Source: a virus
Length of the DNA: 26,449 nt
Direction: 5' to 3' (one strand)
Virus genome (UHGV): UHGV-1509762
The number at the start of each line of letters is the position of its first letter. Positions within the stretch are counted from its first letter, which is position 1. Shown here piece after piece: positions 41 to 26,449 of the stretch. The notes under the pieces are model-generated. The model saw only the letters and a list, made by a program, of their open reading frames with translations. It had not been told where the DNA came from and ran no database searches. Position numbers and translations under genes: made by a program.

Positions 41-67
41 CCCCCACATGATGTGGGGTTTTTTTTT
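41..67 (+). terminator. Rho-independent terminator-like hairpin (CCCCACAT/ATGTGGGG stem followed by a 9-T run)
   Basis: Seen directly: 8-bp GC-rich inverted repeat at 42-49/51-58 followed by TTTTTTTTT at 59-67. It lies beyond the 3' end of int, near the expected prophage/host junction. Confidence 0.5.
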
Positions 68-1166: not shown

Positions 1167-1235
1167 AAGAAAGCCCTCTGACGCTGTATTCACCATCTTG
1201 GTAACAAATAGTGAAAATGTAATGTTTATAGAGTG

Positions 1236-5973: not shown

Positions 5974-5987
5974 CAATAATGATTGAC

Positions 5988-6018
5988 ATGCTTGATTTTG
6001 TATTCACAAATCAAGCAT
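5988..6018. repeat. Perfect 11-bp inverted repeat (ATGCTTGATTT / AAATCAAGCAT, 9-nt spacer) preceded by TTGACA; candidate operator or regulatory hairpin upstream of the methyltransferase
   Basis: Seen directly at 5988-5998 and 6008-6018, with TTGACA at 5983-5988. Lies in the gap between gene A and the methyltransferase start. Confidence 0.6.
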
Positions 6019-6084
6019 CAAGTAAACATCGATGATGAGAAAGAACAATGCTACAATCCCCACAGCATTAGAAGGAGGTTTATC

Positions 6085-7134: not shown

Positions 7135-7146
7135 AACTTATGTCAT

Positions 7147-7170
7147 CCCCCCTGTCAAAAAACAGGGGGG
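7147..7170. terminator. Hairpin between convergent genes (CCCCCCTGT / ACAGGGGGG stem, A-rich loop); likely bidirectional terminator
   Basis: Seen directly: 9-bp GC-rich inverted repeat in the 41-bp gap between the methyltransferase stop (7134) and the stop of the minus-strand ATPase gene (7176). Confidence 0.6.
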
Positions 7171-7175
7171 TATAA

Positions 7176-9565: not shown

Positions 9566-10600
9566 TCAGCCGTTGTCAGTGTCCAGTGAGTAGTTTTTAA
9601 AGCGGATGACCTCCTGGCCGAGCCAGCCGTTTATTTCCCGAATCCTGTCCTGTAACGGGATTAGCTCATTGCGGACAAAGACCTTTGCCACTTTCTCAAT
9701 ATCGCCCAGTGACCCGACGTTCTCCGGCTTGCCACCCATCAACTGAAAGGGGATGCGGTGTGCGTCCAGCAGGTCAGCGGCGCTGGCTTTTTTGATATTA
9801 AAAAAATCGTCCTTCGTCGCCACTTCACTGAGCGGGATAATTTTAATGCCGTCGGCTTTCCCCTGCGGGGCATAGAGAAACAGGTTTTTAAAGTTGTTGC
9901 GGCCTTTCGACTTCACCATGTTTTCGCGAAGCATTTCGATATCGTTGCGATCCTGCACGGCATCGGTAACGTACATGATGTATCCGGCATGTGCGCCGTT
10001 TTCGTAATACTTGCGGCGGAACAGCGTGGCCGACTCATTCAGCCAGGCAGAGTTAAGGGCGCTGAGATATTCCGGCAGGCCGTACAGCTCCTGATTAATA
10101 TCCGGCTCCAGCAGGTGAAACACGGAACCGGGCGTGAAAGGTGTCGGCTCGTTGAAGGACGGCACCCACCAGTAAACATCCTCTTCCACACCACGGCGGG
10201 TATATTTTGCCGGTGAGGTTTCCAGTCTGATGACCTTACCGGTGGTGCTGTAACGCTTTTCCAGAAACGCATTACCGAACACCAGAAAATCCAGCACAAA
10301 GCGGCTGAAATCCTGTTGCGAAAGCCACGGATGCGGGATAAATGTTGAGGCCAGAATATTGCGTTTGACGTAAATCGGTGAGCTGTGATGCACGGCAGCA
10401 CGCAGGCTTTTTGCCAGACCGGTAAAGCTGACCGGCGGCTCATACCATCTGCCGTTACTGATGCATTCGACGTAATCCAGAATGTCACGGCGGTCGAGTA
10501 CCGGCACCGGCTCGCCAAAGGTGAATGCTTCCATTTTCGGGGCGCTGGCGGTGATTGTTTTTGCCGCTGGCTGCGGTGTTTTCCCTTCTTTCTTGCTCAT
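9566..10600 (-). CDS. Q: Portal protein (P2 gpQ-like)
   Basis: 344 aa, same length as P2 Q; N-terminus MSKKEGKTPQPAAK...FTFGEPVPVLDRRDILDYVEC recognisable; ATGA overlap with the stop of P. Confidence 0.92.
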   Translation of the reverse strand: MSKKEGKTPQPAAKTITASAPKMEAFTFGEPVPVLDRRDILDYVECISNGRWYEPPVSFTGLAKSLRAAVHHSSPIYVKRNILASTFIPHPWLSQQDFSRFVLDFLVFGNAFLEKRYSTTGKVIRLETSPAKYTRRGVEEDVYWWVPSFNEPTPFTPGSVFHLLEPDINQELYGLPEYLSALNSAWLNESATLFRRKYYENGAHAGYIMYVTDAVQDRNDIEMLRENMVKSKGRNNFKNLFLYAPQGKADGIKIIPLSEVATKDDFFNIKKASAADLLDAHRIPFQLMGGKPENVGSLGDIEKVAKVFVRNELIPLQDRIREINGWLGQEVIRFKNYSLDTDNG

Positions 10601-12372
10601 CAGTAAAACTCCAGAATGGTGGATGTCAGCGGGGTGCTGATACCGGCGGTGAGTGGCTCATTTAACAGGGCGTGCATGGTCGCCCAGGCGAGGTCGGCGT
10701 GGCTGGCTTCCTCGCTGCGACTGGCCTCATAGGTGGCGCTGCGTCCGCTGCTGGTCATGGTCTTGCGGATAGCCATAAACGAGCTGGTGATGTCGGTGGC
10801 GCTGACGTCATATTCCAGACAGCCACGGCGGATAACGTCTTTGGCCTTGAGCACCATTGCGGTTTTCATTTCCGGCGTGTAGCGGATATCGCGCGCGGCA
10901 GGATAGAACGAGCGCACGAGCTGGAACACGCCGACACCAAGGCCGGTGGCATCAATGCCGATGTATTCGACGTTGTATTTTTCGGTGAGTTTGCGGATGG
11001 ATTCCGCCTGGGTGGCAAAGTCCATGCCTTTCCACTGGTGACGCTCAAGTATTCTGAATTTGCCACCGGCCACCACCGGCGGTGCCAGCACCACGCATCC
11101 GGCGCTGTCGCCACGGTGTGACGGGTCGTAACCAATCCATACCGGACGTGAGCCGAACGGATTGGCGGCAAACGGCGCATAGTCTTCCCATTCTTCCAGC
11201 GTGTCGACCATGCAGCGTTGCAGCTCCTCGAACGGGAACACCGACGCCTTGTCGTCAACAAATTCACACATGAACAGGTTTTTAAAATCGTCGGCGCTGT
11301 TTTCACGTTTGAGCTGCTCAATGTCGAACAGTGTGCAGCCGCCTTTCAGGGCGTCCTCAATGGTGACAATCTGCCGCCACTGGCCGTCCGCACAGAGAAG
11401 CCCGCTGGCAAGGGCGTTATGACTGACGTCGATTTCCACACGTTCGGCGGCGCTGGCGCGTCCCCGGTTGAACAGTTCACCCGACCAGAACGGGTAGGCG
11501 TCGTGCGCCAGCGTGGACGGGGTGGAGAAATAGGTCGAGCGCAGGTGACTCTGTGAGGCCATACCTGATGCCACCTTACGCAGTACCTGAAAATTCGGGA
11601 TCCAGAAAATCTCGTCGACGTACAGGTCGCCGTTATGGCTCTGTGCGGTGTTGGAGTTGGTGCCGAGAAAAATCAGTTTTGCGCCGTTATTGCCCAGGAC
11701 AATCGGGTCACCGGTCAGGTCAACGTCAACCAGACGGGCAAAGGCGATGATGTATTCGCGGAACACATACGCCTGCGTTTTACTGGCCGACAGAAAAATC
11801 TGGTTATGACCGGTTTTCAGGGCGCGCAGCAGCGCCTCGCGGGAAAAATAAAACGTCGCGCCAATCTGGCGGGATTTCAGGATATCGCGGATGCGGTGCT
11901 CAAGCCCGGCGCGATACCAGTGCAACTGATAGTCGAAAGACTGCTCAAAGAAAATCTGCTCCAGCTTTTCGATAGCCTCGTCACTGAAAAAATTCTTTTT
12001 CGGTTTGCGACGCCCGCCTTTGTTGCGGTTAGCGACGTTCGGATTAAGGTCTGCCTCGTTGCCGGTCTGGCTGTAGCGGTTTACCCGTGCCAGTCGTTCA
12101 ATCTGGCGTCCGAGCAGGTCAATTTCCTTGAAGTCACCGCCGGTTTTCTGCGGTTTGATGATGAGCTGGGTCAGCCGCGCTTCCAGGCTCATTTCGACAC
12201 GGCTGATGGGGGCAACGCTGTCCCAGCCGTCGCGCTGTTTCCAGCTCTGCACCGTCGGGCGTTTCATCTGCAACATGGCGGCAATCTGCGGCACGGAAAA
12301 CCCCTGCCAGTACAGCAGCGCCGCCTGACGACGCGGGTCGTGTAAAAGAGTGGTGTCTGTGGTGATGGTCAT
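10600..12372 (-). CDS. P: Terminase large (ATPase) subunit (P2 gpP-like)
   Basis: 590 aa from the ATG at 12372 (GAGGT RBS 5 nt upstream), matching the P2 P length; the track's start at 12402 is a TTG. Transcribed leftward upstream of Q as in P2. Confidence 0.9.
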   Translation of the reverse strand: MTITTDTTLLHDPRRQAALLYWQGFSVPQIAAMLQMKRPTVQSWKQRDGWDSVAPISRVEMSLEARLTQLIIKPQKTGGDFKEIDLLGRQIERLARVNRYSQTGNEADLNPNVANRNKGGRRKPKKNFFSDEAIEKLEQIFFEQSFDYQLHWYRAGLEHRIRDILKSRQIGATFYFSREALLRALKTGHNQIFLSASKTQAYVFREYIIAFARLVDVDLTGDPIVLGNNGAKLIFLGTNSNTAQSHNGDLYVDEIFWIPNFQVLRKVASGMASQSHLRSTYFSTPSTLAHDAYPFWSGELFNRGRASAAERVEIDVSHNALASGLLCADGQWRQIVTIEDALKGGCTLFDIEQLKRENSADDFKNLFMCEFVDDKASVFPFEELQRCMVDTLEEWEDYAPFAANPFGSRPVWIGYDPSHRGDSAGCVVLAPPVVAGGKFRILERHQWKGMDFATQAESIRKLTEKYNVEYIGIDATGLGVGVFQLVRSFYPAARDIRYTPEMKTAMVLKAKDVIRRGCLEYDVSATDITSSFMAIRKTMTSSGRSATYEASRSEEASHADLAWATMHALLNEPLTAGISTPLTSTILEFY

Positions 12373-12545
12373 GAATACCTCGCCGTGATGAATACACGGC
12401 AAGGCTACTGAGTCGCGCCCCGCGATTCGCTAAGGTGCTGTTGTGTCAGTGATAAGCCATCCGGGACTGATGGCGGAGGATGCGCATCGTCGGGAAACTG
12501 ATGCCGACATGTGACTCCTCTAATCACTATTCAGGACTCCTGACA

Positions 12546-13400
12546 ATGGCAAAAAAAGTCTCAAAATTCTTTCGTATCGGCGTTGAGGGTGACACCTGTG
12601 ACGGGCGTGTCATCAGTGCGCAGGATATTCAGGAAATGGCCGAAACCTTTGACCCGCGAGTCTATGGTTGCCGCATTAACCTGGAACATCTGCGCGGCAT
12701 CCTGCCTGACGGTATTTTTAAGCGTTATGGCGATGTGGTCGAACTGAAGGCCGAAAAGATTGACGATGATTCGGCGCTGAAAGGCAAATGGGCGCTGTTT
12801 GCGAAAATCACCCCGACCGATGACCTTATCGCGATGAACAAGGCCGCGCAGAAGGTCTATACCTCAATGGAAATTCAGCCGAACTTTGCCAATACCGGCA
12901 AATGTTATCTGGTGGGTCTGGCCGTCACCGATGACCCGGCAAGCCTCGGCACGGAATACCTGGAATTCTGCCGCACGGCAAAACACAACCCCCTGAACCG
13001 CTTCAAATTAAGCCCTGAAAACCTGATTTCAGTGGCAACGCCCGTTGAGCTGGAATTTGAAGACCTGCCTGAAACCGTGTTCACCGCCCTGACCGAAAAG
13101 GTGAAGTCCATTTTTGGCCGCAAACAGGCCAGCGATGATGCCCGTCTGAATGACGTGCATGAAGCGGTGACCGCTGTTGCTGAACATGTGCAGGAAAAAC
13201 TGAGCGCCACTGAGCAGCGCCTCGCTGAGATGGAAACCGCCTTTTCCGCTCTTAAGCAGGAGGTGACTGACAGGGCGGATGAAACCAGCCAGGCATTCAC
13301 CCGCCTGAAAAACAGTCTCGACCACACCGAAAGTCTGACCCAGCAGCGCCGCAGCAAGGCCACTGGCGGTGGCGGTGATGCCCTGCTGACGAACTGCTGA
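12546..13400 (+). CDS. O: Capsid scaffolding protein (P2 gpO-like)
   Basis: 284 aa from the ATG at 12546; N-terminus MAKKVSKFFRIGVEGDTCDGR as in P2 gpO. The track ORF begins 22 codons upstream at 12480. Confidence 0.92.
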   Translation: MAKKVSKFFRIGVEGDTCDGRVISAQDIQEMAETFDPRVYGCRINLEHLRGILPDGIFKRYGDVVELKAEKIDDDSALKGKWALFAKITPTDDLIAMNKAAQKVYTSMEIQPNFANTGKCYLVGLAVTDDPASLGTEYLEFCRTAKHNPLNRFKLSPENLISVATPVELEFEDLPETVFTALTEKVKSIFGRKQASDDARLNDVHEAVTAVAEHVQEKLSATEQRLAEMETAFSALKQEVTDRADETSQAFTRLKNSLDHTESLTQQRRSKATGGGGDALLTNC

Positions 13401-13458
13401 CCGGCGTCAGTCAGTCCGGGAAAACCTTCACGATTAACCCTTAATTTCAGGAAAAACT

Positions 13459-14532
13459 ATGCGCCAGGAAACCCGCTTTAAATTTAATGCCTACCTGTCC
13501 CGTGTTGCCGAACTGAACGGCATCGACGCCGGTGATGTGTCGAAAAAATTCACCGTTGAACCGTCGGTCACCCAGACCCTGATGAACACCATGCAGGAGT
13601 CCTCTGATTTTCTGACCCGCATCAACATTGTGCCGGTCAGCGAAATGAAAGGGGAAAAAATTGGTATCGGTGTCACCGGCTCCATCGCCAGCACCACCGA
13701 CACCGCCGGTGGCACCGAGCGTCAGCCGAAGGACTTCTCGAAGCTGGCGTCTAACAAGTACGAATGCGACCAGATTAACTTCGATTTTTATATCCGCTAC
13801 AAAACGCTGGACCTGTGGGCGCGTTATCAGGATTTCCAGCTCCGTGTCCGTAACGCCATTATCAAACGCCAGTCCCTTGATTTCATCATGGCCGGTTTTA
13901 ACGGCGTGAGGCGTGCCGAAACCTCTGACCGCAGCAGCAATCCGATGCTGCAGGATGTGGCGGTCGGCTGGCTGCAGAAATACCGCAATGAAGCCCCGGC
14001 GCGCGTGATGAGCAAGGTCACTGACGAGGAAGGTCACACCACCTCTGAGGTCATCCGCGTGGGTAAAGGCGGTGATTATGCCAGCCTCGATGCACTGGTG
14101 ATGGATGCGACCAACAACCTGATTGAGCCGTGGTATCAGGAAGACCCTGACCTTGTGGTGATTGTGGGGCGTCAGTTACTGGCGGACAAGTATTTCCCCA
14201 TCGTCAACAAGGAGCAGGACAACAGCGAAATGCTGGCCGCTGACGTCATCATCAGCCAGAAACGCATCGGTAACCTACCAGCGGTACGCGTCCCGTACTT
14301 CCCGGCGGATGCGATGCTCATCACGAAGCTGGAAAACCTGTCCATCTACTACATGGATGACAGCCATCGCCGCGTGATTGAGGAAAACCCGAAACTCGAC
14401 CGCGTGGAGAACTACGAGTCAATGAACATTGATTACGTGGTGGAAGACTACGCCGCCGGTTGTCTGGTGGAAAAAATTAAGGTCGGTGATTTCTCCACAC
14501 CGGCTAAGGCGACCGCAGAGCCGGGAGCGTAA
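13459..14532 (+). CDS. N: Major capsid protein (P2 gpN-like)
   Basis: 357 aa, same length as P2 N; N-terminus MRQETRFKFNAYLSRVAELNG recognisable. Confidence 0.93.
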   Translation: MRQETRFKFNAYLSRVAELNGIDAGDVSKKFTVEPSVTQTLMNTMQESSDFLTRINIVPVSEMKGEKIGIGVTGSIASTTDTAGGTERQPKDFSKLASNKYECDQINFDFYIRYKTLDLWARYQDFQLRVRNAIIKRQSLDFIMAGFNGVRRAETSDRSSNPMLQDVAVGWLQKYRNEAPARVMSKVTDEEGHTTSEVIRVGKGGDYASLDALVMDATNNLIEPWYQEDPDLVVIVGRQLLADKYFPIVNKEQDNSEMLAADVIISQKRIGNLPAVRVPYFPADAMLITKLENLSIYYMDDSHRRVIEENPKLDRVENYESMNIDYVVEDYAAGCLVEKIKVGDFSTPAKATAEPGA

Positions 14533-14535
14533 CCG

Positions 14536-15279
14536 ATGACGAGTCCCGCACAGCGCCACATGATGCGGGTCTCGGCAGCGATGACCGCGCAGCGGGAAGC
14601 CGCCCCGCTGCGACATGCAACTGTCTATGAGCAGATGCTGGTCAAGCTGGCCGCAGACCAGCGCACACTGAAAGCGATTTATTCAAAAGAGCTGAAGGCC
14701 GCGAAAAAACGCGAACTGCTGCCGTTCTGGTTGCCGTGGGTGAACGGCGTGCTGGAGCAGGGCAAAGGTGCACAGGATGACATTCTGATGACGGTCATGC
14801 TGTGGCGTCTGGATACCGGCGATATTGCCGGTGCGCTGGAGATTGCCCGTTATGCCCTGAAGTACGGTCTGACCATGCCGGGTAAACACCGCCGCACCCC
14901 GCCGTACATGTTCACCGAGGAGGTGGCGCTCGCGGCCATGCGTGCTCACGCTGCCGGTGAGTCTGTGGATACCCGCCTGCTGACGGACACCCTTGAACTG
15001 ACCGCCACGGCTGACATGCCTGATGAAGTGCGCGCAAAGCTGCACAAAATCACCGGTCTGTTTCTGCGTGACGGTGGTGATGCCGCAGGTGCGCTGGCGC
15101 ACCTGCAACGTGCGACACAGCTCGACTGTCAGGCAGGCGTCAAAAAAGAGATTGAACGACTGGAGCGGGAGCTGAAACCGAAGCCGGAGCCGCAACCCAA
15201 AGCGGCCACCCGTGCCACGCGTAAGACCCGGAGTGCGACACCGGCAAAACGTGGACGCCCGAAAAAGAAAGCCAGTTAA
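14536..15279 (+). CDS. M: Terminase small (endonuclease) subunit (P2 gpM-like)
   Basis: 247 aa, same length and position as P2 M; lysine/arginine-rich C-terminus. Confidence 0.88.
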   Translation: MTSPAQRHMMRVSAAMTAQREAAPLRHATVYEQMLVKLAADQRTLKAIYSKELKAAKKRELLPFWLPWVNGVLEQGKGAQDDILMTVMLWRLDTGDIAGALEIARYALKYGLTMPGKHRRTPPYMFTEEVALAAMRAHAAGESVDTRLLTDTLELTATADMPDEVRAKLHKITGLFLRDGGDAAGALAHLQRATQLDCQAGVKKEIERLERELKPKPEPQPKAATRATRKTRSATPAKRGRPKKKAS

Positions 15280-15378
15280 CAACCGAATGCGCCCCGCGCC
15301 AGGGCGGCACGCCGGTCTGTGAGGGTGAATCACCTGACACTGTACCGGCGTCCACCGCCCGACTTTTCAGAGGTAGTC

Positions 15379-15888
15379 ATGATGACGCTGATTATTCCGC
15401 GAAAGGAGGCTCCCGTGTCCGGTGAGGGTACGGTGGTCATCCCGCAACCGGCAGGCGACGAGCCGGTGATTAAAAACACGTTCTTTTTTCCCGATATCGA
15501 CCCGAAGCGCGTCCGGGAACGTATGCGCCTTGAGCAGACCGTCGCCCCCGCCCGTCTGCGTGAGGCCATCAAGTCAGGCATGGCTGAAACGAATGCGGAG
15601 CTGTACGAGTACCGCGAACAGAAAATTGCTGCCGGTTTTACGCGTCTGGCGGACGTCCCGGCGGACGACATCGACGGTGAAAGCATCAAAGTTTTTTACT
15701 ACGAGCGCGCCGTGTGTGCGATGGCGACCGCGTCGCTTTATGAGCGTTATCGCGGTGTGGATGCCAGTGCGAAAGGCGACAAGAAGGCTGACAGCATTGA
15801 CAGCACCATTGATGAACTGTGGCGGGATATGCGCTGGGCAGTGGCGCGCATCCAGGACAAGCCGCGCTGCATCGTGAGTCAAATCTGA
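15379..15888 (+). CDS. L: Head completion/stabilisation protein (P2 gpL-like)
   Basis: 169 aa from the ATG at 15379 (MMTLIIPRKEAPVSGEG), matching the P2 L length. Confidence 0.88.
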   Translation: MMTLIIPRKEAPVSGEGTVVIPQPAGDEPVIKNTFFFPDIDPKRVRERMRLEQTVAPARLREAIKSGMAETNAELYEYREQKIAAGFTRLADVPADDIDGESIKVFYYERAVCAMATASLYERYRGVDASAKGDKKADSIDSTIDELWRDMRWAVARIQDKPRCIVSQI

Positions 15889-16091
15889 TGAAGACCTTTG
15901 CGCTACAGGGCGACACGCTCGACGCCATTTGTGTCCGGTATTACGGGCGCACTGAGGGCGTGGTCGAAGCCGTGCTCGCCGCAAATCCGGGACTGGCTGA
16001 ACTGGGTGCGGTGCTGCCACACGGCACCGCCGTCGAACTGCCCGACGTTCAGACCGCGCCCGTGGCTGAAACTGTCAATCTGTGGGAGTAA
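15888..16091 (+). CDS. X: Tail protein X (P2 gpX-like)
   Basis: 67 aa from the ATG at 15888, overlapping the L stop (TGATG); MKTFALQGDTLDAICVRYYGRTEG. Confidence 0.85.
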   Translation: MKTFALQGDTLDAICVRYYGRTEGVVEAVLAANPGLAELGAVLPHGTAVELPDVQTAPVAETVNLWE

Positions 16092-16094
16092 CGC

Positions 16095-16376
16095 ATGACA
16101 GCAGAAGAAAAAAGCGTCCTGTCGCTTTTCATGATTGGGGTGCTGATTGTTGTCGGCAAGGTGCTTGCCGGTGGTGAACCCATCACCCCGCGTCTGTTTA
16201 TCGGACGCATGTTGCTCGGTGGTTTTGTCTCGATGGTTGCCGGTGTTGTTCTGGTGCAGTTTCCTGACCTGTCACTGCCTGCGGTGTGCGGCATCGGCTC
16301 CATGCTGGGTATCGCCGGTTATCAGGTGATTGAGATTGCCATTCAGCGTCGCTTTAAGGGCAGGGGGAAACAGTAA
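16095..16376 (+). CDS. Y: Holin (P2 gpY-like)
   Basis: 93 aa with hydrophobic transmembrane segments and a charged C-terminus (RRFKGRGKQ); first gene of the lysis cassette. Confidence 0.88.
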   Translation: MTAEEKSVLSLFMIGVLIVVGKVLAGGEPITPRLFIGRMLLGGFVSMVAGVVLVQFPDLSLPAVCGIGSMLGIAGYQVIEIAIQRRFKGRGKQ

Positions 16377-16873
16377 TGCCGGTAATTAACACGCATCAGA
16401 ATATCGCCGCCTTTCTCGACATGCTGGCGGTATCCGAAGGGACGGCGAATCATCCGCTGACGAAAAACCGTGGCTATGACGTGATAGTCACCGGACTGGA
16501 CGGGAAGCCGGAAATTTTCACCGACTACAGTGACCACCCGTTCGCACATGGCCGACCGGCGAAGGTGTTTAACCGTCGCGGTGAAAAATCCACGGCCTCC
16601 GGTCGCTATCAGCAGCTTTACCTGTTCTGGCCGCATTACCGCAAACAGCTTGCCCTGCCGGATTTCAGTCCGTTGTCACAGGACAGACTCGCCATTCAGT
16701 TGATCCGCGAACGCGGTGCACTGGATGACATCCGGGCGGGACGCATTGAGCGCGCCATTTCACGCTGTCGCAATATCTGGGCGTCCCTGCCGGGTGCCGG
16801 TTACGGTCAGCGTGAGCATTCACTGGAAAAACTGGTCACCGTCTGGCGTACCGCTGGCGGCGTACCGGCTTAA
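16376..16873 (+). CDS. K: Endolysin (lambda R / P2 gpK-like lysozyme-fold muramidase/transglycosylase)
   Basis: 165 aa; strong similarity to lambda R as I recall it (FLDMLAVSEGT ... GYDVIV ... FTDYSDHP ... SGRYQ ... IWASLPGAGYGQ). Confidence 0.9.
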   Translation: MPVINTHQNIAAFLDMLAVSEGTANHPLTKNRGYDVIVTGLDGKPEIFTDYSDHPFAHGRPAKVFNRRGEKSTASGRYQQLYLFWPHYRKQLALPDFSPLSQDRLAIQLIRERGALDDIRAGRIERAISRCRNIWASLPGAGYGQREHSLEKLVTVWRTAGGVPA

Positions 16874-16887
16874 ACGGAGTAAACATC

Positions 16888-17313
16888 ATGAAGAAATTAT
16901 CCCTTTCACTGATGCTGAACGTGTCGCTGGCGCTGATGCCGGCACTGTCCCTGATTTACCCGCAGAGCGTGGCCGTCAATTTTGTCGCTGCCTGGGCGAT
17001 TCTGGCGACGGTTATCTGTGTGGTTGCCGGTGGTGTCGGCGTGTATGCCACTGAGTATGTGCTGGAACGCTACGGGCGGGAGCTGCCGCCGGAATCGCTG
17101 GCCGTGAAGATTGTCACGTCGCTGTTTTTGCAGCCGGTGCCGTGGTGCAGACGGGCGGTGGGTCTGGTGGTGATGGTGGTGACGTTTATCTCGCTGGTCG
17201 CTGCCGGGTGGATTTTTACCGCGCTGATTTATCTTGTGGCGTCGCTGTTTTTCCGGCTGATACGTACGGCCTGCCGTCAGCGTTTTGAGGGGCGGGAACC
17301 ATGTCAAAGCTGA
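16888..17313 (+). CDS. lysA: Lysis accessory membrane protein (P2 LysA-like)
   Basis: 141 aa, multiple hydrophobic helices, same length and position as P2 lysA. Confidence 0.8.
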   Translation: MKKLSLSLMLNVSLALMPALSLIYPQSVAVNFVAAWAILATVICVVAGGVGVYATEYVLERYGRELPPESLAVKIVTSLFLQPVPWCRRAVGLVVMVVTFISLVAAGWIFTALIYLVASLFFRLIRTACRQRFEGREPCQS

Positions 17314-17726
17314 TGACTGTGCTGGTTGTGTTGTTATCACTGGCGGTGGCCGGTCTGTTTCTGACGAAGCATGAAAACGCCAGACTGCGCGCCTCGCTGG
17401 ACAGGGCGAACAACGTCGCCAGCGGGCAGCAGGCGACCATCACCATGCTGAAAAATCAGCTTCATGTTGCCATCACCAGGGCAGACAAAAACGAGCTGGC
17501 GCAGGTGGCACTGCGTCAGGAACTGGAAAACGCCGCGAAGCGTGAAGCACAGCGCGAGAAAACCATCACGAGATTACTCAATGAAAACGAAGATTTTCGC
17601 CGCTGGTACGGTGCTGACCTGCCTGATGCTGTGCGCCGGTTGCACCAGCGTCCGGCCTGCACCGACGCCAGTGATTGTCGCCAACGCCTGCCCGAAAGTG
17701 AGCCTTTGCCCGATGCCGGGCAGTGA
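17301..17726 (+). CDS. lysB: Inner-membrane spanin (Rz-like, P2 LysB-like)
   Basis: 141 aa with N-terminal transmembrane anchor followed by a coiled-coil-like charged region. Confidence 0.8.
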   Translation: MSKLMTVLVVLLSLAVAGLFLTKHENARLRASLDRANNVASGQQATITMLKNQLHVAITRADKNELAQVALRQELENAAKREAQREKTITRLLNENEDFRRWYGADLPDAVRRLHQRPACTDASDCRQRLPESEPLPDAGQ

Positions 17727-17871
17727 CCCGCAGACGAACGGCGATTTAAGTGCTGATATCCGGCAGCTTGAGAACGCGCTGGCACGCTGTGCCAGCCAGG
17801 TAAAAATGATTAAACACTGTCAGGACGAAAACGATGCTCAAACCCGACAGCCTGCGCAGGGCGCTGACTGA
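17581..17871 (+). CDS. lysC: Outer-membrane lipoprotein spanin (Rz1-like, P2 LysC-like), embedded in the +1 frame of lysB
   Basis: Internal ATG at 17581 of the 17464..17871 track ORF gives MKTKIFAAGTVLTCLMLCAGC, a lipoprotein signal peptide with lipobox cysteine; overlaps the 3' part of lysB in another frame. Confidence 0.75.
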   Translation: MKTKIFAAGTVLTCLMLCAGCTSVRPAPTPVIVANACPKVSLCPMPGSDPQTNGDLSADIRQLENALARCASQVKMIKHCQDENDAQTRQPAQGAD

Positions 17872-18301
17872 CGCCGTCACGGTGCTGAAAACCAGTCCCG
17901 AGATGCTGCGGATATTCGTGGATAACGGGAGTATTGCCTCCACACTGGCGGCGTCGTTGTCATTCGAAAAGCGTTACACGCTCAATGTGATTGTGACCGA
18001 CTTTACCGGTGATTTTGACCTGCTCATTGTGCCGGTGCTGGCGTGGCTGCGGGAAAATCAGCCCGACATCATGACCACCGACGAAGGCCAGAAAAAGGGC
18101 TTCACGTTTTATGCAGACATCAACAATGACAGCAGCTTTGATATCAGCATCAGCCTGATGCTGACCGAGCGCACGCTGGTCAGTGAGGTGGACGGCGCGC
18201 TGCATGTGAAGAATATCCCGGAACCTCCGCCGCCGGAGCCGGTTACCCGCCCGATGGAGCTGTATATCAATGGCGAACTGGTGAGCAAGTGGGATGAATG
18301 A
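17834..18301 (+). CDS. R: Tail completion protein (P2 gpR-like)
   Basis: 155 aa, same length and position as P2 R. Confidence 0.88.
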   Translation: MLKPDSLRRALTDAVTVLKTSPEMLRIFVDNGSIASTLAASLSFEKRYTLNVIVTDFTGDFDLLIVPVLAWLRENQPDIMTTDEGQKKGFTFYADINNDSSFDISISLMLTERTLVSEVDGALHVKNIPEPPPPEPVTRPMELYINGELVSKWDE

Positions 18302-18746
18302 GTTTAAGCGTTTTGAAGACCGGCTGACCGGACTGATTGAGTCGCTGTCACCGTCAGGGCGTCGACGACTGAGTGCCGAACTGGCGAAACGTCTGCGTCA
18401 GAGTCAGCAGCGTCGGGTGATGGCACAGAAAGCCCCGGACGGCACACCCTACGCGCCACGCCAGCAGCAGAGCGCCAGAAAAAAGACCGGTCGCGTTAAG
18501 CGAAAAATGTTTGCGAAACTTATCACCAGTCGTTTTTTGCATATCCGCGCCAGCCCGGAACAGGCATCAATGGAGTTTTACGGCGGGAAGTCACCGAAAA
18601 TCGCCAGCGTGCATCAGTTCGGTCTGTCGGAAGAAAACCGGAAAGACGGTAAGAAAATTGATTATCCGGCGCGTCCTCTGCTCGGCTTTACCGGTGAGGA
18701 TGTGCAGATGATTGAAGAGATTATCCTGGCTCACCTCGACCGTTAG
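18294..18746 (+). CDS. S: Tail completion protein (P2 gpS-like)
   Basis: 150 aa, same length and position as P2 S. Confidence 0.88.
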   Translation: MNEFKRFEDRLTGLIESLSPSGRRRLSAELAKRLRQSQQRRVMAQKAPDGTPYAPRQQQSARKKTGRVKRKMFAKLITSRFLHIRASPEQASMEFYGGKSPKIASVHQFGLSEENRKDGKKIDYPARPLLGFTGEDVQMIEEIILAHLDR

Positions 18747-18812
18747 TTGTGCCATTCCCGACACCTCATCGTCACATTGCCGCCGGTATGACCCGGCGGC
18801 ATCCTTCCCGTT

Positions 18813-19448
18813 ATGAACACTCTCGCAAATATTCAGGAACTCGCGCGCGCACTGCGCAACATGATTCGCACCGGCGTTATCGTCGAAACCGACCTTAACG
18901 CCGGTCGCTGCCGTGTGCAGACCGGCGGCATGTGTACCGACTGGCTGCAGTGGCTGACCCATCGCGCCGGACGTTCGCGCACATGGTGGGCACCTTCCGT
19001 GGGGGAACAGGTGCTGATTCTGGCCGTGGGCGGTGAACTCGACACGGCGTTCGTTCTGCCGGGGATTTATTCCGGCGATAACCCCGCGCCGTCTGCGTCG
19101 GCGGATGCCCTGCATATCCGTTTCCCTGACGGGGCGGTGATTGAGTATGAACCCGAAACCAGTGCACTCACGGTAAGCGGAATTAAAACGGCCAGCGTGA
19201 CGGCTTCTGATTCTGTTACTGCCACGGTGCCGGTGGTCATGGTGAAAGCATCAACCCGCGTCACCCTGGACACACCGGAGGTGGTCTGCACTAACAAACT
19301 GACTACCGGCACGCTGGAAGTGCAGAAGGGTGGGACGATGCGCGGCAACATTGAACACACCGGTGGTGAACTCTCATCAAACGGTAAGGTGCTGCATACC
19401 CATAAACACCCCGGCGACAGCGGCGGCACAACCGGGAGCCCTCTATGA
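18813..19448 (+). CDS. V: Baseplate spike/assembly protein (P2 gpV-like)
   Basis: 211 aa, same length and position as P2 V. Confidence 0.88.
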   Translation: MNTLANIQELARALRNMIRTGVIVETDLNAGRCRVQTGGMCTDWLQWLTHRAGRSRTWWAPSVGEQVLILAVGGELDTAFVLPGIYSGDNPAPSASADALHIRFPDGAVIEYEPETSALTVSGIKTASVTASDSVTATVPVVMVKASTRVTLDTPEVVCTNKLTTGTLEVQKGGTMRGNIEHTGGELSSNGKVLHTHKHPGDSGGTTGSPL

Positions 19449-19792
19449 CAGCGCGTTATCTCGGAATGAATTGCAGTGATGGCCTGACTGTCACTGACCT
19501 TGAGCATATCAGCCAGAGTATCGGCGATATCCTGCGCACACCGGTCGGCTCGCGGGTGATGCGTCGTGATTACGGCTCGTTGCTGGCGTCAATGATTGAC
19601 CAGCCGCAGACTCCGGCGCTTGAGTTGCAGATTAAGGTCGCCTGTTACATGGCGGTGCTGAAATGGGAACCCCGCGTCACCCTGTCATCCGTCACCACGG
19701 CGCGCAGCTTTGACGGTCGAATGACAGTTACGTTAACCGGCCAGCATAACGACACCGGCCAGCCACTTTCGTTAACCATCCCTGTGAGTTGA
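19445..19792 (+). CDS. W: Baseplate wedge protein (P2 gpW-like, gp25 family)
   Basis: 115 aa, ATG overlapping the V stop; same length and position as P2 W. Confidence 0.88.
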   Translation: MTARYLGMNCSDGLTVTDLEHISQSIGDILRTPVGSRVMRRDYGSLLASMIDQPQTPALELQIKVACYMAVLKWEPRVTLSSVTTARSFDGRMTVTLTGQHNDTGQPLSLTIPVS

Positions 19793-19796
19793 AACC

Positions 19797-20705
19797 ATGC
19801 CGATTATCGACCTGAACCAGCTACCCGCACCGGATGTGGTTGAGGAGCTGGACTTTGAAACCATTCTCGCCGAACGCAAGGCGACACTGATTTCCCTTTA
19901 CCCGGAAGACCAGCAGGAGGCGGTCGCCCGTACCCTGACGCTGGAATCTGAGCCTCTCGTCAAACTGCTGGAGGAAAATGCTTATCGTGAGCTTATCTGG
20001 CGTCAGCGTGTGAATGAGGCTGCACGGGCGGTAATGCTGGCCTGTGCCGCCGGTAATGACCTTGATGTGATTGGTGCCAATTACAACACCACGCGCCTGA
20101 CTATCACCCCGGCAGATGATTCGACCATTCCGCCGACACCGGCAGTGATGGAATCTGACACAGATTATCGTCTGCGTATTCAGCAGGCGTTTGAAGGTTT
20201 AAGCGTCGCCGGGTCGGTGGGTGCCTATCAGTATCATGGACGCAGTGCTGACGGGCGTGTTGCGGATATCTCTGTCACCAGTCCGTCTCCGGCCTGCGTC
20301 ACTATCTCCGTGCTGTCACGTGAAAATAACGGTGTCGCATCCGAAGACCTGCTGGCCGTGGTGCGTAACGCCCTGAATGGCGAGGACGTCAGACCGGTGG
20401 CCGACCGCGTGACCGTACAGTCTGCCGCCATCGTTGAATACCAGATAAACGCCACGCTTTACCTTTACCCTGGTCCCGAAAGCGAACCCATCCGCGCTGC
20501 CGCCGTGAAAAAACTGGAAGCGTACATCACGGCACAGCACCGGCTGGGGCGCGACATCCGTCTGTCTGCCATTTATGCCGCTTTGCATGTGGAAGGCGTG
20601 CAGCGTGTCGAACTGGCTGCACCGCTGGCCGACATTGTGCTCAACAGTACGCAGGCGTCTTTCTGTACCGAATACCGCGTCGTGACCGGAGGCTCGGATG
20701 AGTGA
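19797..20705 (+). CDS. J: Baseplate protein (P2 gpJ-like)
   Basis: 302 aa, same length and position as P2 J. Confidence 0.88.
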   Translation: MPIIDLNQLPAPDVVEELDFETILAERKATLISLYPEDQQEAVARTLTLESEPLVKLLEENAYRELIWRQRVNEAARAVMLACAAGNDLDVIGANYNTTRLTITPADDSTIPPTPAVMESDTDYRLRIQQAFEGLSVAGSVGAYQYHGRSADGRVADISVTSPSPACVTISVLSRENNGVASEDLLAVVRNALNGEDVRPVADRVTVQSAAIVEYQINATLYLYPGPESEPIRAAAVKKLEAYITAQHRLGRDIRLSAIYAALHVEGVQRVELAAPLADIVLNSTQASFCTEYRVVTGGSDE

Positions 20706-21225
20706 GCGCCTGCTGCCGACCGGCTCATCACCGCTTGAAATTGCTGCCGCAAAAGCCTGTGCGGAAATTGAAAAAACGCCGGTCAGTATTCGTGAACTGT
20801 GGAACCCGGACACCTGTCCGGCAAATCTGCTGCCGTGGCTGGCGTGGGCGTTTTCGGTCGACAGGTGGGATGAAAAGTGGCCGGAAGCGACAAAACGCGC
20901 CGTTATCCGCGATGCCTATTTCATCCACTGTCATAAAGGCACTGTCGGCGCAATCCGGCGTGTGGTGGAGCCGCTCGGCTATCTCATTAACGTAAAGGAA
21001 TGGTGGGAGACAAACGACCCGCCCGGAACCTTCCGCCTTGATATCGGCGTACTGGAAAGCGGCATCACGGAGGAGATGTATCTGGAAATGGAACGGCTTA
21101 TTGCCGATGCCAAACCCGCAAGTCGCCACCTTATCGGTCTGAACATTATCCAGGACATTCCCGGCTGTCTGTATACAGGCGGTGTGGTCTGTGATGGTGA
21201 TGTTATTACTGTTTATCCCGGATAA
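20698..21225 (+). CDS. I: Baseplate / tail-fibre attachment protein (P2 gpI-like)
   Basis: 175 aa, overlaps the J stop; position as P2 I. Confidence 0.85.
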   Translation: MSERLLPTGSSPLEIAAAKACAEIEKTPVSIRELWNPDTCPANLLPWLAWAFSVDRWDEKWPEATKRAVIRDAYFIHCHKGTVGAIRRVVEPLGYLINVKEWWETNDPPGTFRLDIGVLESGITEEMYLEMERLIADAKPASRHLIGLNIIQDIPGCLYTGGVVCDGDVITVYPG

Positions 21226-21235
21226 GTGAGAAACA

Positions 21236-23995
21236 ATGAGCACGAAATTTAAAACCGTTATCACTACTGCCGGAGCCGCGAAGCTGGCAGCCGCCACTGT
21301 TCCCGGCGGGAAAAAAGTAAACCTGTCTGCAATGGCTGTGGGTGACGGTAATGGCCAATTGCCGGTGCCGGATGCCGGTCAGACGAAACTGGTGCATGAA
21401 GTCTGGCGTCATGCCCTGAATAAAGTCAGTGTGGATAACAAGAATAAAAACTATATCGTGGCTGAACTGGTTGTTCCGCCAGAAGTGGGCGGCTTCTGGA
21501 TGCGTGAGCTTGGTCTGTATGACGATGCCGGAACACTGATTGCGGTATCCAACATGGCAGAAAGCTATAAGCCAGAACTGGCTGAAGGCTCCGGACGTGC
21601 GCAGACCTGCCGCATGGTTATTATTCTCAGCAACGTGGCGTCCGTTGAGCTGAGTATTGATGCCAGCACAGTGATGGCGACGCAGGATTACGTCGATGAC
21701 AAAATCGCAGAGCATGAGCAGTCCCGCCGCCATCCTGACGCCACGCTGACAGAAAAAGGTTTTACTCAGTTAAGCAGTGCAACAAACAGCACCAGTGAAA
21801 AGCAGGCTGCAACGCCAAAGGCAGTAAAAGCAGCCTATGACAATGCTGAGAAACGTCTGCAGAAAGACCAGAACGGTGGCGATATTCCAGATAAGGACGC
21901 TTTTCTGGACAATGTTGGCGTTACCAGCCTGACGTTTATGAAAAACAATGGCGAAATGCCGCTTGATGCTGATCTGAATACATTTGGTCCCGTTAAGGCT
22001 TATCTGGGAATCTGGTCTAAAGCTACCTCAACTAACGCAACACTGGAGAAAAATTTCCCGGAAGATAATGCTGTCGGTGTGCTTGAGGTTTTTGCTGCCG
22101 GCAATTTTGCAGGTACGCAACGCTTCACCACGAGAGACGGCAATGTATACATACGCAGACTCGCCAATAAGTGGAATGGCTCTGATGGTCCGTGGGGCAT
22201 ATGGCGTCACACTCAATCAGCTACCCGCCCTTTGAGTACGACTATAGACCTGAATACGCTTGGAGCCGCCGAACATCTTGGTTTATGGCGTAACAGTAGC
22301 TCGGCTATAGCTTCATATGAACGCAATTATCCAGAGGAAGGCGGCTTTGCTCAGGGGATGCTTGAGATCCTCGAAGGCGGAAATTATGGAAGAACGCAAC
22401 GTTATACCACTCGCCGTGGAAATATGTATGTCCGCTGCCTTGCGGCAAGCTGGGATGCATCAAATCCGCAGTGGGAACCGTGGTTAAGAGTCGGTCATCA
22501 GTCAGAGAGTCGTTATTACGAAGGTGATTTGAATGATGTAACCTCACCAGGTATTTACAGCGTTACAGGTAAAGCGACCAACGGTCCAGTACTGGACGGA
22601 AACGGCGTGACTGTACTCGGCATTCTGGAAGTGTTGAGGCGGTTTGATGGTGTTAATGTATGGCAGCGTTATACAACTGCCGGAACAGGTACAACCCTTA
22701 AAGGCCGCACCTTTGAGCGCGTCTTTACCGGCAGCTCATGGAGCGAATGGCGGGAAGTCTACACCTCGTATTCACTTCCCCTGAATCTGGGTATCGGCGG
22801 TGCTGTGGCAAAGCTCACCAGACTGGACTGGCAGACCTACGATTTTGTGCCGGGCAGTCTGATAACCGTTAGGCTGGATAATATGACCAATATTCCCGAC
22901 GGTATGGACTGGGGCGTCATTGATGGCAACCTGATAAACATCGCAGTTGGTCCGAGTGATGATTCCGGTACGGGGCGCTCAATGCATGTATGGCGCAGCA
23001 CTGTAAGTAAAGCGAACTACCGATTTTTTATGGTGCGTATTTCAGGAAATCCGGGAAGCCGCACGATCACAGCAAGACGAGTACCAATCATTGACGAAGC
23101 CCAGACATGGGGCGCGAAACAGACATTCAGTGCTGGCCTTTCTGGTGAACTGTCCGGCAATGCGGCGACAGCAACAAAGCTGAAAACAGCCCGTAAAATT
23201 AATAACGTTTCGTTTGATGGAACATCAGATATTAACCTGACGCCGAAAAATATTGGTGCATTTGCTTCAGGAAAAACAGGAGACACCGTTGCGAATGATA
23301 AAGCCGTTGGGTGGAACTGGAGTAGCGGAGCCTATAACGCAACTACTGGTGGGGTATCAACGTTAATTCTTCATTTTAATATCGGTGAAGGAAGTTGTCC
23401 CGCCGCCCAGTTCCGCGTTAATTATAAGAACGGCGGTATTTTTTATCGTTCTGCTCGTGACGGTTACGGATTCGAGGCTGACTGGTCTGAGTTTTATACC
23501 ACAACGCGAAAACCTACAGCGGGAGATGTCGGTGCACTGCCGTTATCTGGTGGTCAATTGAATGGTGCTCTGGGTATAGGAACATCCAGTGCTCTTGGCG
23601 GTAATTCGATTGTTTTGGGTGATAATGACACGGGCTTTAAACAAAATGGTGATGGTAATCTGGATGTTTATGCTAATAGCGTCCATGTTATGCGCTTTGT
23701 CTCGGGAAGTATTCAAAGTAATAAAACCATAAATATTACGGGGCGTGTTAATCCCTCGGATTACGGTAACTTTGATTCCCGCTATGTCCGGGATATCCGG
23801 CTTGGTGGTGCTGCCACATACAAACCTGCGAACAATGGCATGACATGGACACATCAGGCACCGTCCGGGTGTGTATATTCCGGCATTATTGTTCAGGATA
23901 CCGGCTCAAACTCTGCCGATAACATTGGTGGTGTATATTACAGACCGGTTCAGAAATACATTAACGGGACATGGTATAACGTGGCGCAGGTATAA
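21236..23995 (+). CDS. H: Tail fibre protein (P2 gpH-like N-terminus with an extended, repeat-containing distal part)
   Basis: 919 aa. The N-terminal 200 or so residues (TVITTAGAAKLAAAT ... ATNSTSEKQAATPKAVKAAYD) resemble P2 H; the rest is longer than P2 H (669 aa) and contains three tandem degenerate repeats of about 90 aa. Confidence 0.9.
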   Translation: MSTKFKTVITTAGAAKLAAATVPGGKKVNLSAMAVGDGNGQLPVPDAGQTKLVHEVWRHALNKVSVDNKNKNYIVAELVVPPEVGGFWMRELGLYDDAGTLIAVSNMAESYKPELAEGSGRAQTCRMVIILSNVASVELSIDASTVMATQDYVDDKIAEHEQSRRHPDATLTEKGFTQLSSATNSTSEKQAATPKAVKAAYDNAEKRLQKDQNGGDIPDKDAFLDNVGVTSLTFMKNNGEMPLDADLNTFGPVKAYLGIWSKATSTNATLEKNFPEDNAVGVLEVFAAGNFAGTQRFTTRDGNVYIRRLANKWNGSDGPWGIWRHTQSATRPLSTTIDLNTLGAAEHLGLWRNSSSAIASYERNYPEEGGFAQGMLEILEGGNYGRTQRYTTRRGNMYVRCLAASWDASNPQWEPWLRVGHQSESRYYEGDLNDVTSPGIYSVTGKATNGPVLDGNGVTVLGILEVLRRFDGVNVWQRYTTAGTGTTLKGRTFERVFTGSSWSEWREVYTSYSLPLNLGIGGAVAKLTRLDWQTYDFVPGSLITVRLDNMTNIPDGMDWGVIDGNLINIAVGPSDDSGTGRSMHVWRSTVSKANYRFFMVRISGNPGSRTITARRVPIIDEAQTWGAKQTFSAGLSGELSGNAATATKLKTARKINNVSFDGTSDINLTPKNIGAFASGKTGDTVANDKAVGWNWSSGAYNATTGGVSTLILHFNIGEGSCPAAQFRVNYKNGGIFYRSARDGYGFEADWSEFYTTTRKPTAGDVGALPLSGGQLNGALGIGTSSALGGNSIVLGDNDTGFKQNGDGNLDVYANSVHVMRFVSGSIQSNKTINITGRVNPSDYGNFDSRYVRDIRLGGAATYKPANNGMTWTHQAPSGCVYSGIIVQDTGSNSADNIGGVYYRPVQKYINGTWYNVAQV

Positions 23996-23998
23996 TTT

Positions 23999-24526
23999 AT
24001 GCAGCATTTAAAAAATATTACGGCGGGTAATCCAAAAACGGTTGAACAATATCAATTGACAAAAGACTTTGATGTTGTCTGGTTTTTTTCAGAAGATGGT
24101 AAGAACTGGTACGAAGAACAAAAGTATTTTGCTGATGACACGCTAAAAATAGCGTACGACAAAGATAATATCATCCGCTATGTGGAAAAGGATGTGACAG
24201 CTATCAGACCGGATGGATTAAGTGTTGTTGAAGTGGCGGATATTACTGCTAACCGACGGGCGGACATTTCAGGGAACTGGATGTTTAAGGACGGCAAAGT
24301 GATTAAACGCATTTATACGGCAGAGGAATTGCTGCAGCAGGCAGAAAACCGGAAAGCCAGACTTCTTGCAGATGCTGAATCCGTGATTTTGCCGCTGGAG
24401 CGCGCGGTCAGACTGAACATGGCAACAGATGAGGAGCGTAGCCGACTGGATGCATGGGAGCGTTACAGCGTTCTGGTCAGTCGTGTGGATCCTGCAAATC
24501 CTGAATGGCCGGAAATGCCGCAATAA
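23999..24526 (+). CDS. G: Tail fibre assembly chaperone (P2 gpG-like)
   Basis: 175 aa immediately downstream of H; same length and position as P2 G. Confidence 0.85.
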
Positions 24527-24747
24527 GTTGTATGATCTCTGGAGTGAGCAAACATATCTATGGCACAGAGTAAAGCCTAATCTGACAGGCCGCTCTGTGT
24601 CTGGAGTAGATTTTAGTAAAGCATTATTTTATTAGTGCAAATTCTAATCAATACATTTTATGTATATGATATCCTGCAGACTTTAATGACTTGGTTTAGG
24701 CTAACCAGATAACACTGAAGGAATATTTTTGATAATTAAGGTGCGGT

Positions 24748-25341
24748 ATGTTTACTAAGCGACGATTAAAAAATATTAACTGGGAGGCAAGTTCAGTGAT
24801 TCTTGCTATGGTTCTCTTTGTTGGAAATATATTTTATACAAATCATCGTGATGATATAACTATGGAGGCTGAGAGGGACAGTATCAGAACAATGTTTGCA
24901 TATGAAATCGCTAATAACCATCGCGCTCTCACTTTTCTTGATAAAACGAGATATATTGGCTTTGACGAAAATTCGGAGCATTTTGTTGGCGAGCCTTTTG
25001 CCATTAATGTCAAATCATTAGGGGGGCCTCGCTTACAGATTGCATTAAACCAGACTGATAAAGTGTTTAAATCCTACTTCAGCGAATTAAGTAAGCTTGA
25101 TAAAGAGGATGTTACTCTTCTTATGGACTATTACCATGAGCAAAGCATCCTGCTGGAGCGTGTAAAATCTACGTTACAGAAGATGAAAAGTGGTAATGAT
25201 ATTAAAGTTGATATTGATGGTTACTTATTAGAAGAACACTTCATGAATGAGCTTAATCTTTCTAATATTTTGCTTAAACGCTATAGCCATTTGTTGTCAC
25301 AACACGCCAAAGAACATAAAACAAAAGATTTACATAATTGA
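24748..25341 (+). CDS. Hypothetical membrane-anchored protein of unknown function (cargo gene at the G-downstream hotspot)
   Basis: 197-aa ORF in a visibly AT-rich island; TAAGGTG RBS just upstream of the ATG; N-terminal basic stretch then one hydrophobic helix (SSVILAMVLFVGNIFY), remainder charged. No family recognised. Confidence 0.6.
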   Translation: MFTKRRLKNINWEASSVILAMVLFVGNIFYTNHRDDITMEAERDSIRTMFAYEIANNHRALTFLDKTRYIGFDENSEHFVGEPFAINVKSLGGPRLQIALNQTDKVFKSYFSELSKLDKEDVTLLMDYYHEQSILLERVKSTLQKMKSGNDIKVDIDGYLLEEHFMNELNLSNILLKRYSHLLSQHAKEHKTKDLHN

Positions 25342-25546
25342 TAATCTGCTAATGGTTATTCATGGGGTAACTATGTTTTATATGTAATCCAACTCAGATG
25401 AATTATTGATTCTGGATAATAACCGCAGAGCGGTATATACCCTGACAGGCAAATGTCCGCTTCTTGTTCAAAGCAGACCGTCAGATTTGATAACTTTTGG
25501 GCTATGTAAATTGTCAGTCGGAAAATGAGTGAGTTCAAATCAGGAC

Positions 25547-25574
25547 AGGCGGGCGAATTGCCCGCCTTTTCTTT
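25547..25574 (+). terminator. Rho-independent terminator (AGGCGGGC / GCCCGCCT stem, T-rich tail)
   Basis: Seen directly: 8-bp GC stem with 5-nt loop (25547-25567) followed by TTTTCTTT; downstream of the 197-aa ORF and just before the IS2 end. Confidence 0.6.
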
Positions 25575-25593
25575 ATCTGTTGTTTCATCCACT

Positions 25594-26449
25594 GGATTTG
25601 CCCCTATATTTCCAGACATCTGTTATCACTTAACCCATTACAAGCCCGCTGCCGCAGATATTCCCGTGGCGAGCGATAACCCAGCGCACTATGCGGATGC
25701 CATTCGTTATAATGCTCGAACGCCTCTGCAAGGTTCTTTGCTGCCGTTAACCCGTCTGGTTTGGGCATGATACTGATGTAGTCACGCTTTATCGTTTTCA
25801 CGAAGCTCTCTGCTATTCCGTTACTCTCCGGACTCCGCACCGCCGTGTTCTTCGGTTCAAGTCCCAACATCCGGGCGAACTGGCGTGTTTCATTAGCCCG
25901 GTAGCATGAACCATTATCCGTCAGCCACTCCAGTGGAGACGACGGAAGATCGTTGCCGAAGCGGCGTTCCACCGCTCCCAGCATGACGTCCTGTACTGTT
26001 TCACTGTTGAAGCCGCCGGTAGTGACCGCCCAGTGCAGTGCCTCACGATCACAGCAGTCCAGCGCGAACGTGACACGCAGTCTCTCTCCGTTATCACAGC
26101 AGAACTCGAACCCGTCAGAGCACCATCGCTGATTGCTTTCTTTCACGGCCACTCTGCCTGTATGTGCCCGTTTCGATGGCGGTACAGCAGGTTTTCGCTC
26201 AAGCAACAGCGCATTCTGGCGCATGATCCGGTAAACACGTTTGGCATTGATCGCAGGCATACCATCAAGTTCTGTTTGTCTGCGAAGCAGCGCCCATACC
26301 CGACGATAACCATACGTGGGCAGCTCTCCGATAACATGGTGTATACGGAGAAGCACATCCGTATCATCAGTGTGACGACTGCGGCGGCCATCCATCCAGT
26401 CATCGGTTCGTCTGAGAATGACGTGCAACTGCGCACGCGACACCCGGAG
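25594..26449 (-). mobile_element. IS2 insertion sequence (IS3 family), partial, inverted orientation, truncated by the window end
   Basis: The terminal sequence TGGATTTGCCCCTATATTTCCAGACATCTGTTATCACTTAA at 25594-25634 is the reverse complement of the IS2 right inverted repeat as I recall it; followed by the IS2 orfB (InsD) coding sequence on the minus strand. Confidence 0.9.
25604..26449 (-). CDS. insD: IS2 transposase OrfB (InsD), 5' end outside the window
   Basis: 279-aa track ORF is recognisable as E. coli IS2 InsD over its whole length ([29 protein letters not shown] ... [33 protein letters not shown]); the true N-terminus and orfA lie beyond 26449. Confidence 0.92.

Follow-up and report, generated by a model that had tools for sequence, protein, structure and literature searches.

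An IS2 insertion splits the activator site of the late promoter pF in an otherwise intact P2-like prophage and probably prevents tail production

When an insertion sequence is found in a prophage exactly where the tail operon should begin, and the available sequence stops inside the element, the question arises whether the phage has lost the expression of its tail genes, whether the genes themselves have been lost or displaced, or whether the element arrived together with a neighboring gene. Such a situation occurs in the stretch of DNA analyzed here (26,449 nucleotides, in the following referred to as the window). The window is the complete contig Ga0495776_155276 of the JGI metagenome 3300045988; by comparison with Escherichia coli CFSAN061771 it begins one base after cpxP, and it finishes inside IS2, as had already been recognized in an initial annotation made from the sequence alone. 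We consider it likely that a simple and recent transposition placed IS2 into the dyad through which the activator Ogr acts on the late promoter pF, by which activation would be lost and the prophage would make no tails. The effect on transcription is a prediction from the sequence.

The right-hand end of the window (positions 25593-26449, 857 bp) is the right-hand part of IS2 in reverse complement, running on the minus strand from IS2 position 1331 down to position 475 at the contig end. As a reference, the annotated IS2A copy of E. coli K-12 (NC_000913.3, 381260-382590) was used, and 853 of the 857 bases are identical to IS2A positions 475-1331 (99.5%), with none of the four mismatches in the terminal repeat. 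The initial annotation had placed the element at 25594-26449; its identity is confirmed by this match, and only the start had to be corrected to 25593. There, the plus strand begins with TGGATTTGCCCC, and the longer read from the same position, TGGATTTGCCCCTATATTTCCAGACA, is the reverse complement of the IS2 right end. As the first two bases of IS2, TG, are also the next two bases of the uninterrupted target, the BLAST match to IS-free sequences extends to 25594. The right inverted repeat (IRR) of IS2 is 41 bp long and, at 25593-25633 (minus strand), free of mismatches to the right end of IS2A; its outward direction is towards the cargo gene and away from the tail sheath gene FI. The adjoining open reading frame (25604-26449, minus strand) encodes the C-terminal 281 codons of OrfB (InsD, the DDE transposase), is open to the contig end and matches the Pfam families rve (1e-18), rve_3 and HTH_21. 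The 281 residues contain no stop codon and differ from K-12 InsD at two positions. In this orientation the left end of IS2 points towards FI, and the transposase reads away from it.

The left 474 bp of IS2 lie outside the contig, which stops at IS2 position 475. IS2 sequences matching at 99% or more occur in thousands of E. coli records, and the truncation at the end of the window is an assembly break in a multicopy repeat and not a biological deletion. Two open reading frames span the junction between prophage and IS2. The first, of 82 codons (25371-25619, minus strand), starts inside the IRR, has no Pfam match and is probably no real gene; it serves as a unique marker of the junction, and in the gene-position index it is recorded on a single contig, which is the window itself. 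For the second (25525-25770, plus strand), the protein look-up returned no record.

By gene order and protein content, the remainder of the window was assigned to a P2-like (Peduovirus) prophage. According to the ORF map and the RefSeq annotation of the CFSAN061771 prophage, P2-family proteins are encoded in the order known from P2, that is, int (186-1196, minus strand), C, cox, B and A, then Q, P, O, N, M, L, X, the lysis genes, R, S, V, W, J, I, H (21236-23995) and G (23999-24526). The repressor is of the P2 C type, with 46% identity to P2 C and the same length. As P2 has been described as non-inducible by mitomycin C, with a repressor lacking the peptidase motif (PMC2669165), mitomycin C is poorly suited for induction of the phage in the window. 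The P2 old/tin hotspot (5983-9134) is occupied by a type II restriction-modification (R-M) pair, consisting of an m5C methyltransferase (5983-7134, plus strand; PADLOC matches to MTase_II and DrmMII) and a 652-aa restriction enzyme of the BbrUII/HgiDII family (7176-9134, minus strand; PADLOC match to REase_II). The intergenic region between S and V (18747-18812) is without orf30, which P2 has at this place, and contains a G+C-rich hairpin, GCCGCCGG...CCGGCGGC; the strict pattern TGT-N12-ACA has no match within it.

Close relatives of this prophage exist without IS2. Window positions 1-25592 and the IS-free P2-like prophage of E. coli CFSAN061771, which is located between cpxP and fieF, differ by a single mismatch at position 19900. 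At this position, the window has A and CFSAN061771 has G, resulting in Tyr and Cys, respectively, at codon 35 of the baseplate gene J, and A prevails at the related loci that were compared. An IS-free contig, L014, has no mismatch to window positions 11236-25592. In addition, 100% of window positions 600-25592 is matched at 97.8% identity by Escherichia phage PhiR44_1 (host E. coli C), so that a deposited phage genome has this backbone without IS2. A feature inside the matched region was named 'ParaMORC3' by those who deposited PhiR44_1. As IS2 is essentially the sole difference from the IS-free relatives, its insertion is very recent.

To what extent the tail genes are affected depends on the exact insertion point. 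In the IS-free, otherwise identical prophages, the start codon of FI is located 78 bp beyond this point, as anticipated by the initial annotation, which had expected FI and FII just downstream. The prophage sequence running up to the IS2 junction reads ...TTGTTTCATCCA(C), the uninterrupted allele spanning the site reads ...TCCACTGACCAGCC..., and across the insertion point itself the IS-free relatives read ...TTTCATCCAC|TGACCAGCCAGGTCAAATAGCG.... In the P2 record NC_001895, positions 17555-17583 are annotated as 'activator binding site; activation of pF promoter', and the start site of the F operon is given at 17626-17628. The activator dyad of P2 pF is TGT-GCTGTCGATTAG-CCA, that of pO/pP is TGT-GTCAGTGATAAG-CCA, and the aligned dyad in the IS-free relative is TGT-TTCATCCACTGA-CCA. 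When seven IS-free pF regions, taken from diverse P2-like prophages of E. coli, were aligned, TGT and CCA proved invariant, in contrast to the variable 12 bp between them. Many E. coli genomes carry other cargo in this place, and in these the similarity to the query starts at query position 79, one base before TGT, so that the dyad forms the left boundary of the conserved FI module.

IS2 entered the spacer of this dyad after nine of its 12 bases, at about -54 relative to the start site deduced from the alignment, with the dyad centered at about -56. The window retains the distal part of the site at 25581-25592 (plus strand), comprising TGT (25581-25583) and nine spacer bases (25584-25592), which aligns with NC_001895 17555-17583; the last five of these bases, TCCAC (25588-25592), are the duplicated target. 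The distal TGT half-site has thus remained on the cargo side and now lies about 1.34 kb away from the rest of pF, and the core promoter and the proximal CCA half-site have stayed with FI. An unbroken dyad of the form TGT-N12-(A/C)CA near -55 is present in the IS-free relatives and in P2 and is absent from the window. The suggestion that the insertion separates the tail genes from their late promoter therefore holds insofar as pF is disrupted, but the promoter as a whole has not been removed. Use of the stricter consensus TGT-N12-ACA as a probe turned out to be wrong, since P2 pF and pO read TGT-N12-CCA; it gave four matches in the window (6.5 expected by chance), none of them at a late promoter of the window.

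Upstream of the dyad, a terminator scan identified an intrinsic terminator at 25547-25577 (plus strand), formed by a hairpin (25547-25567, nine pairs, seven of them G-C) and a T-tract extending to about 25577. This terminator belongs to the conserved backbone upstream of pF and has a counterpart in P2, where fun(Z) is on the other strand. IS2 had been described as abutting the terminator. The two are indeed close to each other, but about 15 bases lie between the T-tract and IS2, and these bases contain the distal half of the pF activator site.

If the insertion were simple, the other end of IS2 should be followed by a second copy of the target and the remainder of pF. A reciprocal junction was accordingly predicted from the window, consisting of the IS2 left end (...GGGGGCCAGTCTA), TCCAC and then TGACCAGCCAGG, and this 29-mer was found exactly once in the metagenome collection, in contig OODN01001769.1 (6935 bp; in the following L021). 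The first 55 bases of L021 are identical to the left end of IS2A and are followed by TCCAC (56-60) and by TGACCAGCC of the pF core. Downstream, the tail operon is intact and open, with FI (396 aa), FII (172 aa), E (91 aa), T (815 aa), U (159 aa), D (387 aa) and ogr (72 aa). From TCCAC onward, L021 differs from CFSAN061771 at two of 6880 bases, both beyond ogr. At the place expected for attR, downstream of ogr (6853-6879), L021 contains the 27-mer GACACCATCCCTGTCTTCCCCCACATG, which is identical to the attL core at window positions 24-50 (plus strand), and the two form an attL/attR pair. Within the IS2 left end, L021 27-35 reads GTTGTCTGG, which is also a 9-mer in the annotated activator site of the P2 promoter pV (P2 positions 10241-10249).

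Joined to one another, the window, the rest of IS2 and L021 give a reconstructed prophage of about 33.7 kb, in which IS2 is a simple insertion flanked by a clean duplication of 5 bp, the two TCCAC copies being seen in two different assemblies and the right arm of the window's own genome being deduced. Target duplications of the same length surround IS2 elsewhere, e.g., ATTAC in K-12 and CTAAT in E. coli VL7S7. Taken together, these sequences indicate a simple recent insertion with no sign of deletion. All that the initial annotation had proposed to look for beyond the window, i.e., the other end of IS2, a 5-bp duplication and the genes of the right arm, was found in L021, although in another assembly, and its idea that IS2 marks a deletion does not agree with a far junction at which, in an independent contig, TCCAC precedes FI, FII, E, T, U, D and ogr, all of them intact.

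A possible further trace of the insertion comes from a sequenced isolate. The draft contig DAKULG010000029.1 (GCA_026777245.1) is identical to window positions 11236-25591 and ends, at its position 14356, at the base corresponding to 25591. The contig thus stops one base before the IS2 junction, as a draft assembly would at the start of a repeat, and the isolate may carry the same insertion. Apart from that, no copy of the near junction turned up in 5,426 complete E. coli genomes, the GTDB species genomes, the metagenome contigs or the viral contigs, and the GTDB genomes did not contain the far junction either. When the exact cargo and tail-fiber proteins were looked up, the places returned were all IS-free, except for one contig that stops at the junction. 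The IS2-interrupted pF allele is rare. Among the 5,426 complete genomes, only that of strain VL7S7 covers most of the query, and it has a different IS2 insertion.

Between G and FI, at the position of fun(Z) in P2, the window carries a cargo ORF of 197 aa (24748-25341, plus strand), to which no function was assigned. It lies in an AT-rich region (24527-25502, 35.7% GC compared to 51.1% for the prophage) and matches phrog_3829, a family of unknown function, over the full length; searches against Pfam and PADLOC gave no match. In some RefSeq records the protein is named 'lysogenic conversion protein', and by eye its N-terminal stretch appears to be hydrophobic. The IS2 copy of VL7S7 (NZ_CM177009.1, 12417-13747 of the extracted locus) is inserted in this same ORF. 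It resembles that of the window in the IS itself, in its orientation and in the type of prophage, and is flanked by the 5-bp duplication CTAAT. However, it represents an independent event about 1.2 kb upstream of the window site, which interrupts a non-essential cargo ORF and leaves pF intact. Two IS2 insertions, that of the window and that of VL7S7, have thus been observed in one short AT-rich stretch.

With respect to the structure of the locus, three other explanations were weighed against a simple insertion. As the AT-rich cargo gene adjoins IS2, and an independent copy of IS2 sits inside the same gene in VL7S7, the element might have brought the gene or helped to mobilize it, e.g., as part of a composite transposon, as the initial annotation had proposed for the cargo island. 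Yet at least five complete E. coli genomes without IS2 at this place match the cargo gene and its two flanks at 100% identity, the exact protein is indexed in 410 collection blocks and all ten places shown are IS-free, and isolated phages share the cargo and the pF region with the window. In addition, there is no second IS to the left of the cargo gene, as window positions 1-25592 equal an IS-free prophage except for one base, nor was the cargo found solely together with an IS. A role of IS2 as mobilizer is thus refuted as far as sequence data can show, and we assign practically no probability to it. It is also conceivable that IS2 marks a larger IS2-mediated deletion or inversion in the window's own genome, by which the tail operon was lost or displaced. 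The contig ends inside IS2, with the sequence beyond it unseen, and E. coli genomes matching the query have a median of three matching places, nearly all of them IS2 copies able to recombine. Against this stands the exact far junction of a simple insertion, at which TCCAC is duplicated and beyond which the operon is intact and attR matches. Moreover, the left arm is identical to that of IS-free prophages, which points to a very young event; such a rearrangement is therefore quite unlikely. An assembly chimera, in which prophage DNA was joined to IS2 from elsewhere, would agree with the source, a short-contig metagenome assembly ending in a repeat, and with a near junction found in no other collection. 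It was rejected, since the join falls exactly at the last base of IS2, the predicted reciprocal junction with its 5-bp duplication was then found in an independent assembly, and the draft contig of the isolate breaks at the same position; we regard it as extremely improbable.

For a simple insertion into the dyad, the expected consequences can be outlined. Ogr is a zinc-finger activator. It binds inverted repeats centered near -55 and acts via RNA polymerase's alpha subunit (PMC3152322), and the four late promoters of P2 depend on it (PMC3931495). We propose that one copy of IS2 transposed recently into a P2-like prophage between cpxP and fieF, splitting the Ogr dyad TGT-N12-CCA and displacing its TGT half-site. 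Ogr would then no longer activate pF, the FI-FII-E-E'-T-U-D operon would be silent, and the result would be heads without tails and a non-infectious prophage. This prophage would still be able to integrate, to replicate, to make heads, baseplates and fibers, and to lyse the cell; the genes for integration, replication, head, baseplate, fiber and lysis are intact, as are the R-M system and the cargo gene. That the prophage is likely defective, as had been suggested initially, is therefore supported as the most likely consequence of the split dyad. Simple scans for a sigma-70-like promoter found none, whether in native pF, in the junction of IS2 with pF or in a whole IS2 copy in this orientation, but the scans also missed the promoter of IS2 itself. 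A native pF and a junction without a sigma-70-like -35/-10 pair fit an activator-dependent promoter. Residual or basal transcription from pF is possible, since the CCA half-site and the core promoter remain.

It may be argued that the insertion is real but has little effect, with pF being fired via the CCA half-site, via a TTGT motif in the IS2 left end or by weak outward transcription from IS2, and with infectious particles being produced. In L021, neither the core promoter nor the proximal half-site nor any tail gene is damaged, GTTGTCTGG in the IS2 left end recurs unchanged within the activator site of P2 pV, and at about 33.7 kb the reconstructed prophage is close to the 33.6 kb of P2, so that packaging size should not be limiting. 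However, the TGT half-site, invariant in all seven IS-free pF regions, is replaced by CAG at the correct spacing from CCA. The TGT of GTTGTCTGG at the far junction lies 32 bp from the CCA of pF instead of 12 bp, 20 bp too distant, and is therefore unlikely to be a functional substitute half-site; the match to the pV site is probably coincidence. Moreover, the outward-directed -35 hexamer used by IS3-family elements to form fusion promoters sits in the IRR, at the right end (PMC9330008). As the left end of IS2 faces FI, this element points away from the tail genes, and the junction itself offers no sigma-70-like promoter. We therefore regard a largely unaffected tail operon as unlikely, albeit with a realistic chance. 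A more far-reaching idea is that of a selected and potentially reversible 'tails-off' lesion, by which the host would keep a young prophage for its R-M system and conversion gene with the formation of virions blocked; in a variant of this idea, the TTGT of the IS2 left end would, from a position two helical turns farther away, rewire rather than abolish the response of the tail operon to Ogr. To this we give a very low probability.

The preferred reading, loss of Ogr activation by a simple insertion, can be compared with systems already described. Laboratory mutants of P2 pF, obtained in the deletion analysis by Grambow et al. in 1990 and in the mutational study by Christie and colleagues in 2003, are reported to have the distal half of the dyad near -55 removed or altered and the core kept, and activation is said to be lost, the upstream half-site being needed. 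In contrast to these mutants, the lesion in the window arose naturally, by insertion of 1.3 kb into a wild prophage, and its effect is predicted. The element itself is that of E. coli K-12 IS2A (IS3 family): over 857 bp the identity is 99.5%, the right ends are the same, OrfB is open and contains the rve domain, and the target duplication measures 5 bp. The insertion site is the only difference, with the left 474 bp lying beyond the window contig. Insertions of IS elements are among the defects of the resident prophages of E. coli O157 Sakai, e.g., in Sp4, where nu1 is disrupted by an IS (PMC2669165). These are mostly found in coding sequences of old, multiply damaged lambdoid prophages, whereas the insertion described here affects a regulatory site in an otherwise pristine P2-like prophage. 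At ampC, according to a passage of PMC9330008 that cites Jaurin and Normark 1983, IS2 in the promoter region replaces the upstream part of the promoter. Going by that passage, IS2 cases of this type activate the gene via the -35 hexamer in the right end, whereas in the window the left end of IS2 faces the gene and a loss of expression would be expected.

Thus, the element is IS2 itself, the prophage is an ordinary P2-like one, and neither a new element nor a new mechanism is involved; the insertion is an ordinary kind of prophage decay. What sets it apart is its precision, as it hit the middle of the dyad of a short regulatory site in an otherwise pristine prophage. Metagenome contigs that end in an IS can, as in this case, often be completed by predicting the reciprocal junction. 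The locus represents a natural promoter-bashing allele of P2 pF. Gene-based prophage callers ignore non-coding activator sites and would, from its gene content, class the prophage as intact, although the lesion in such a site probably makes it tail-defective.
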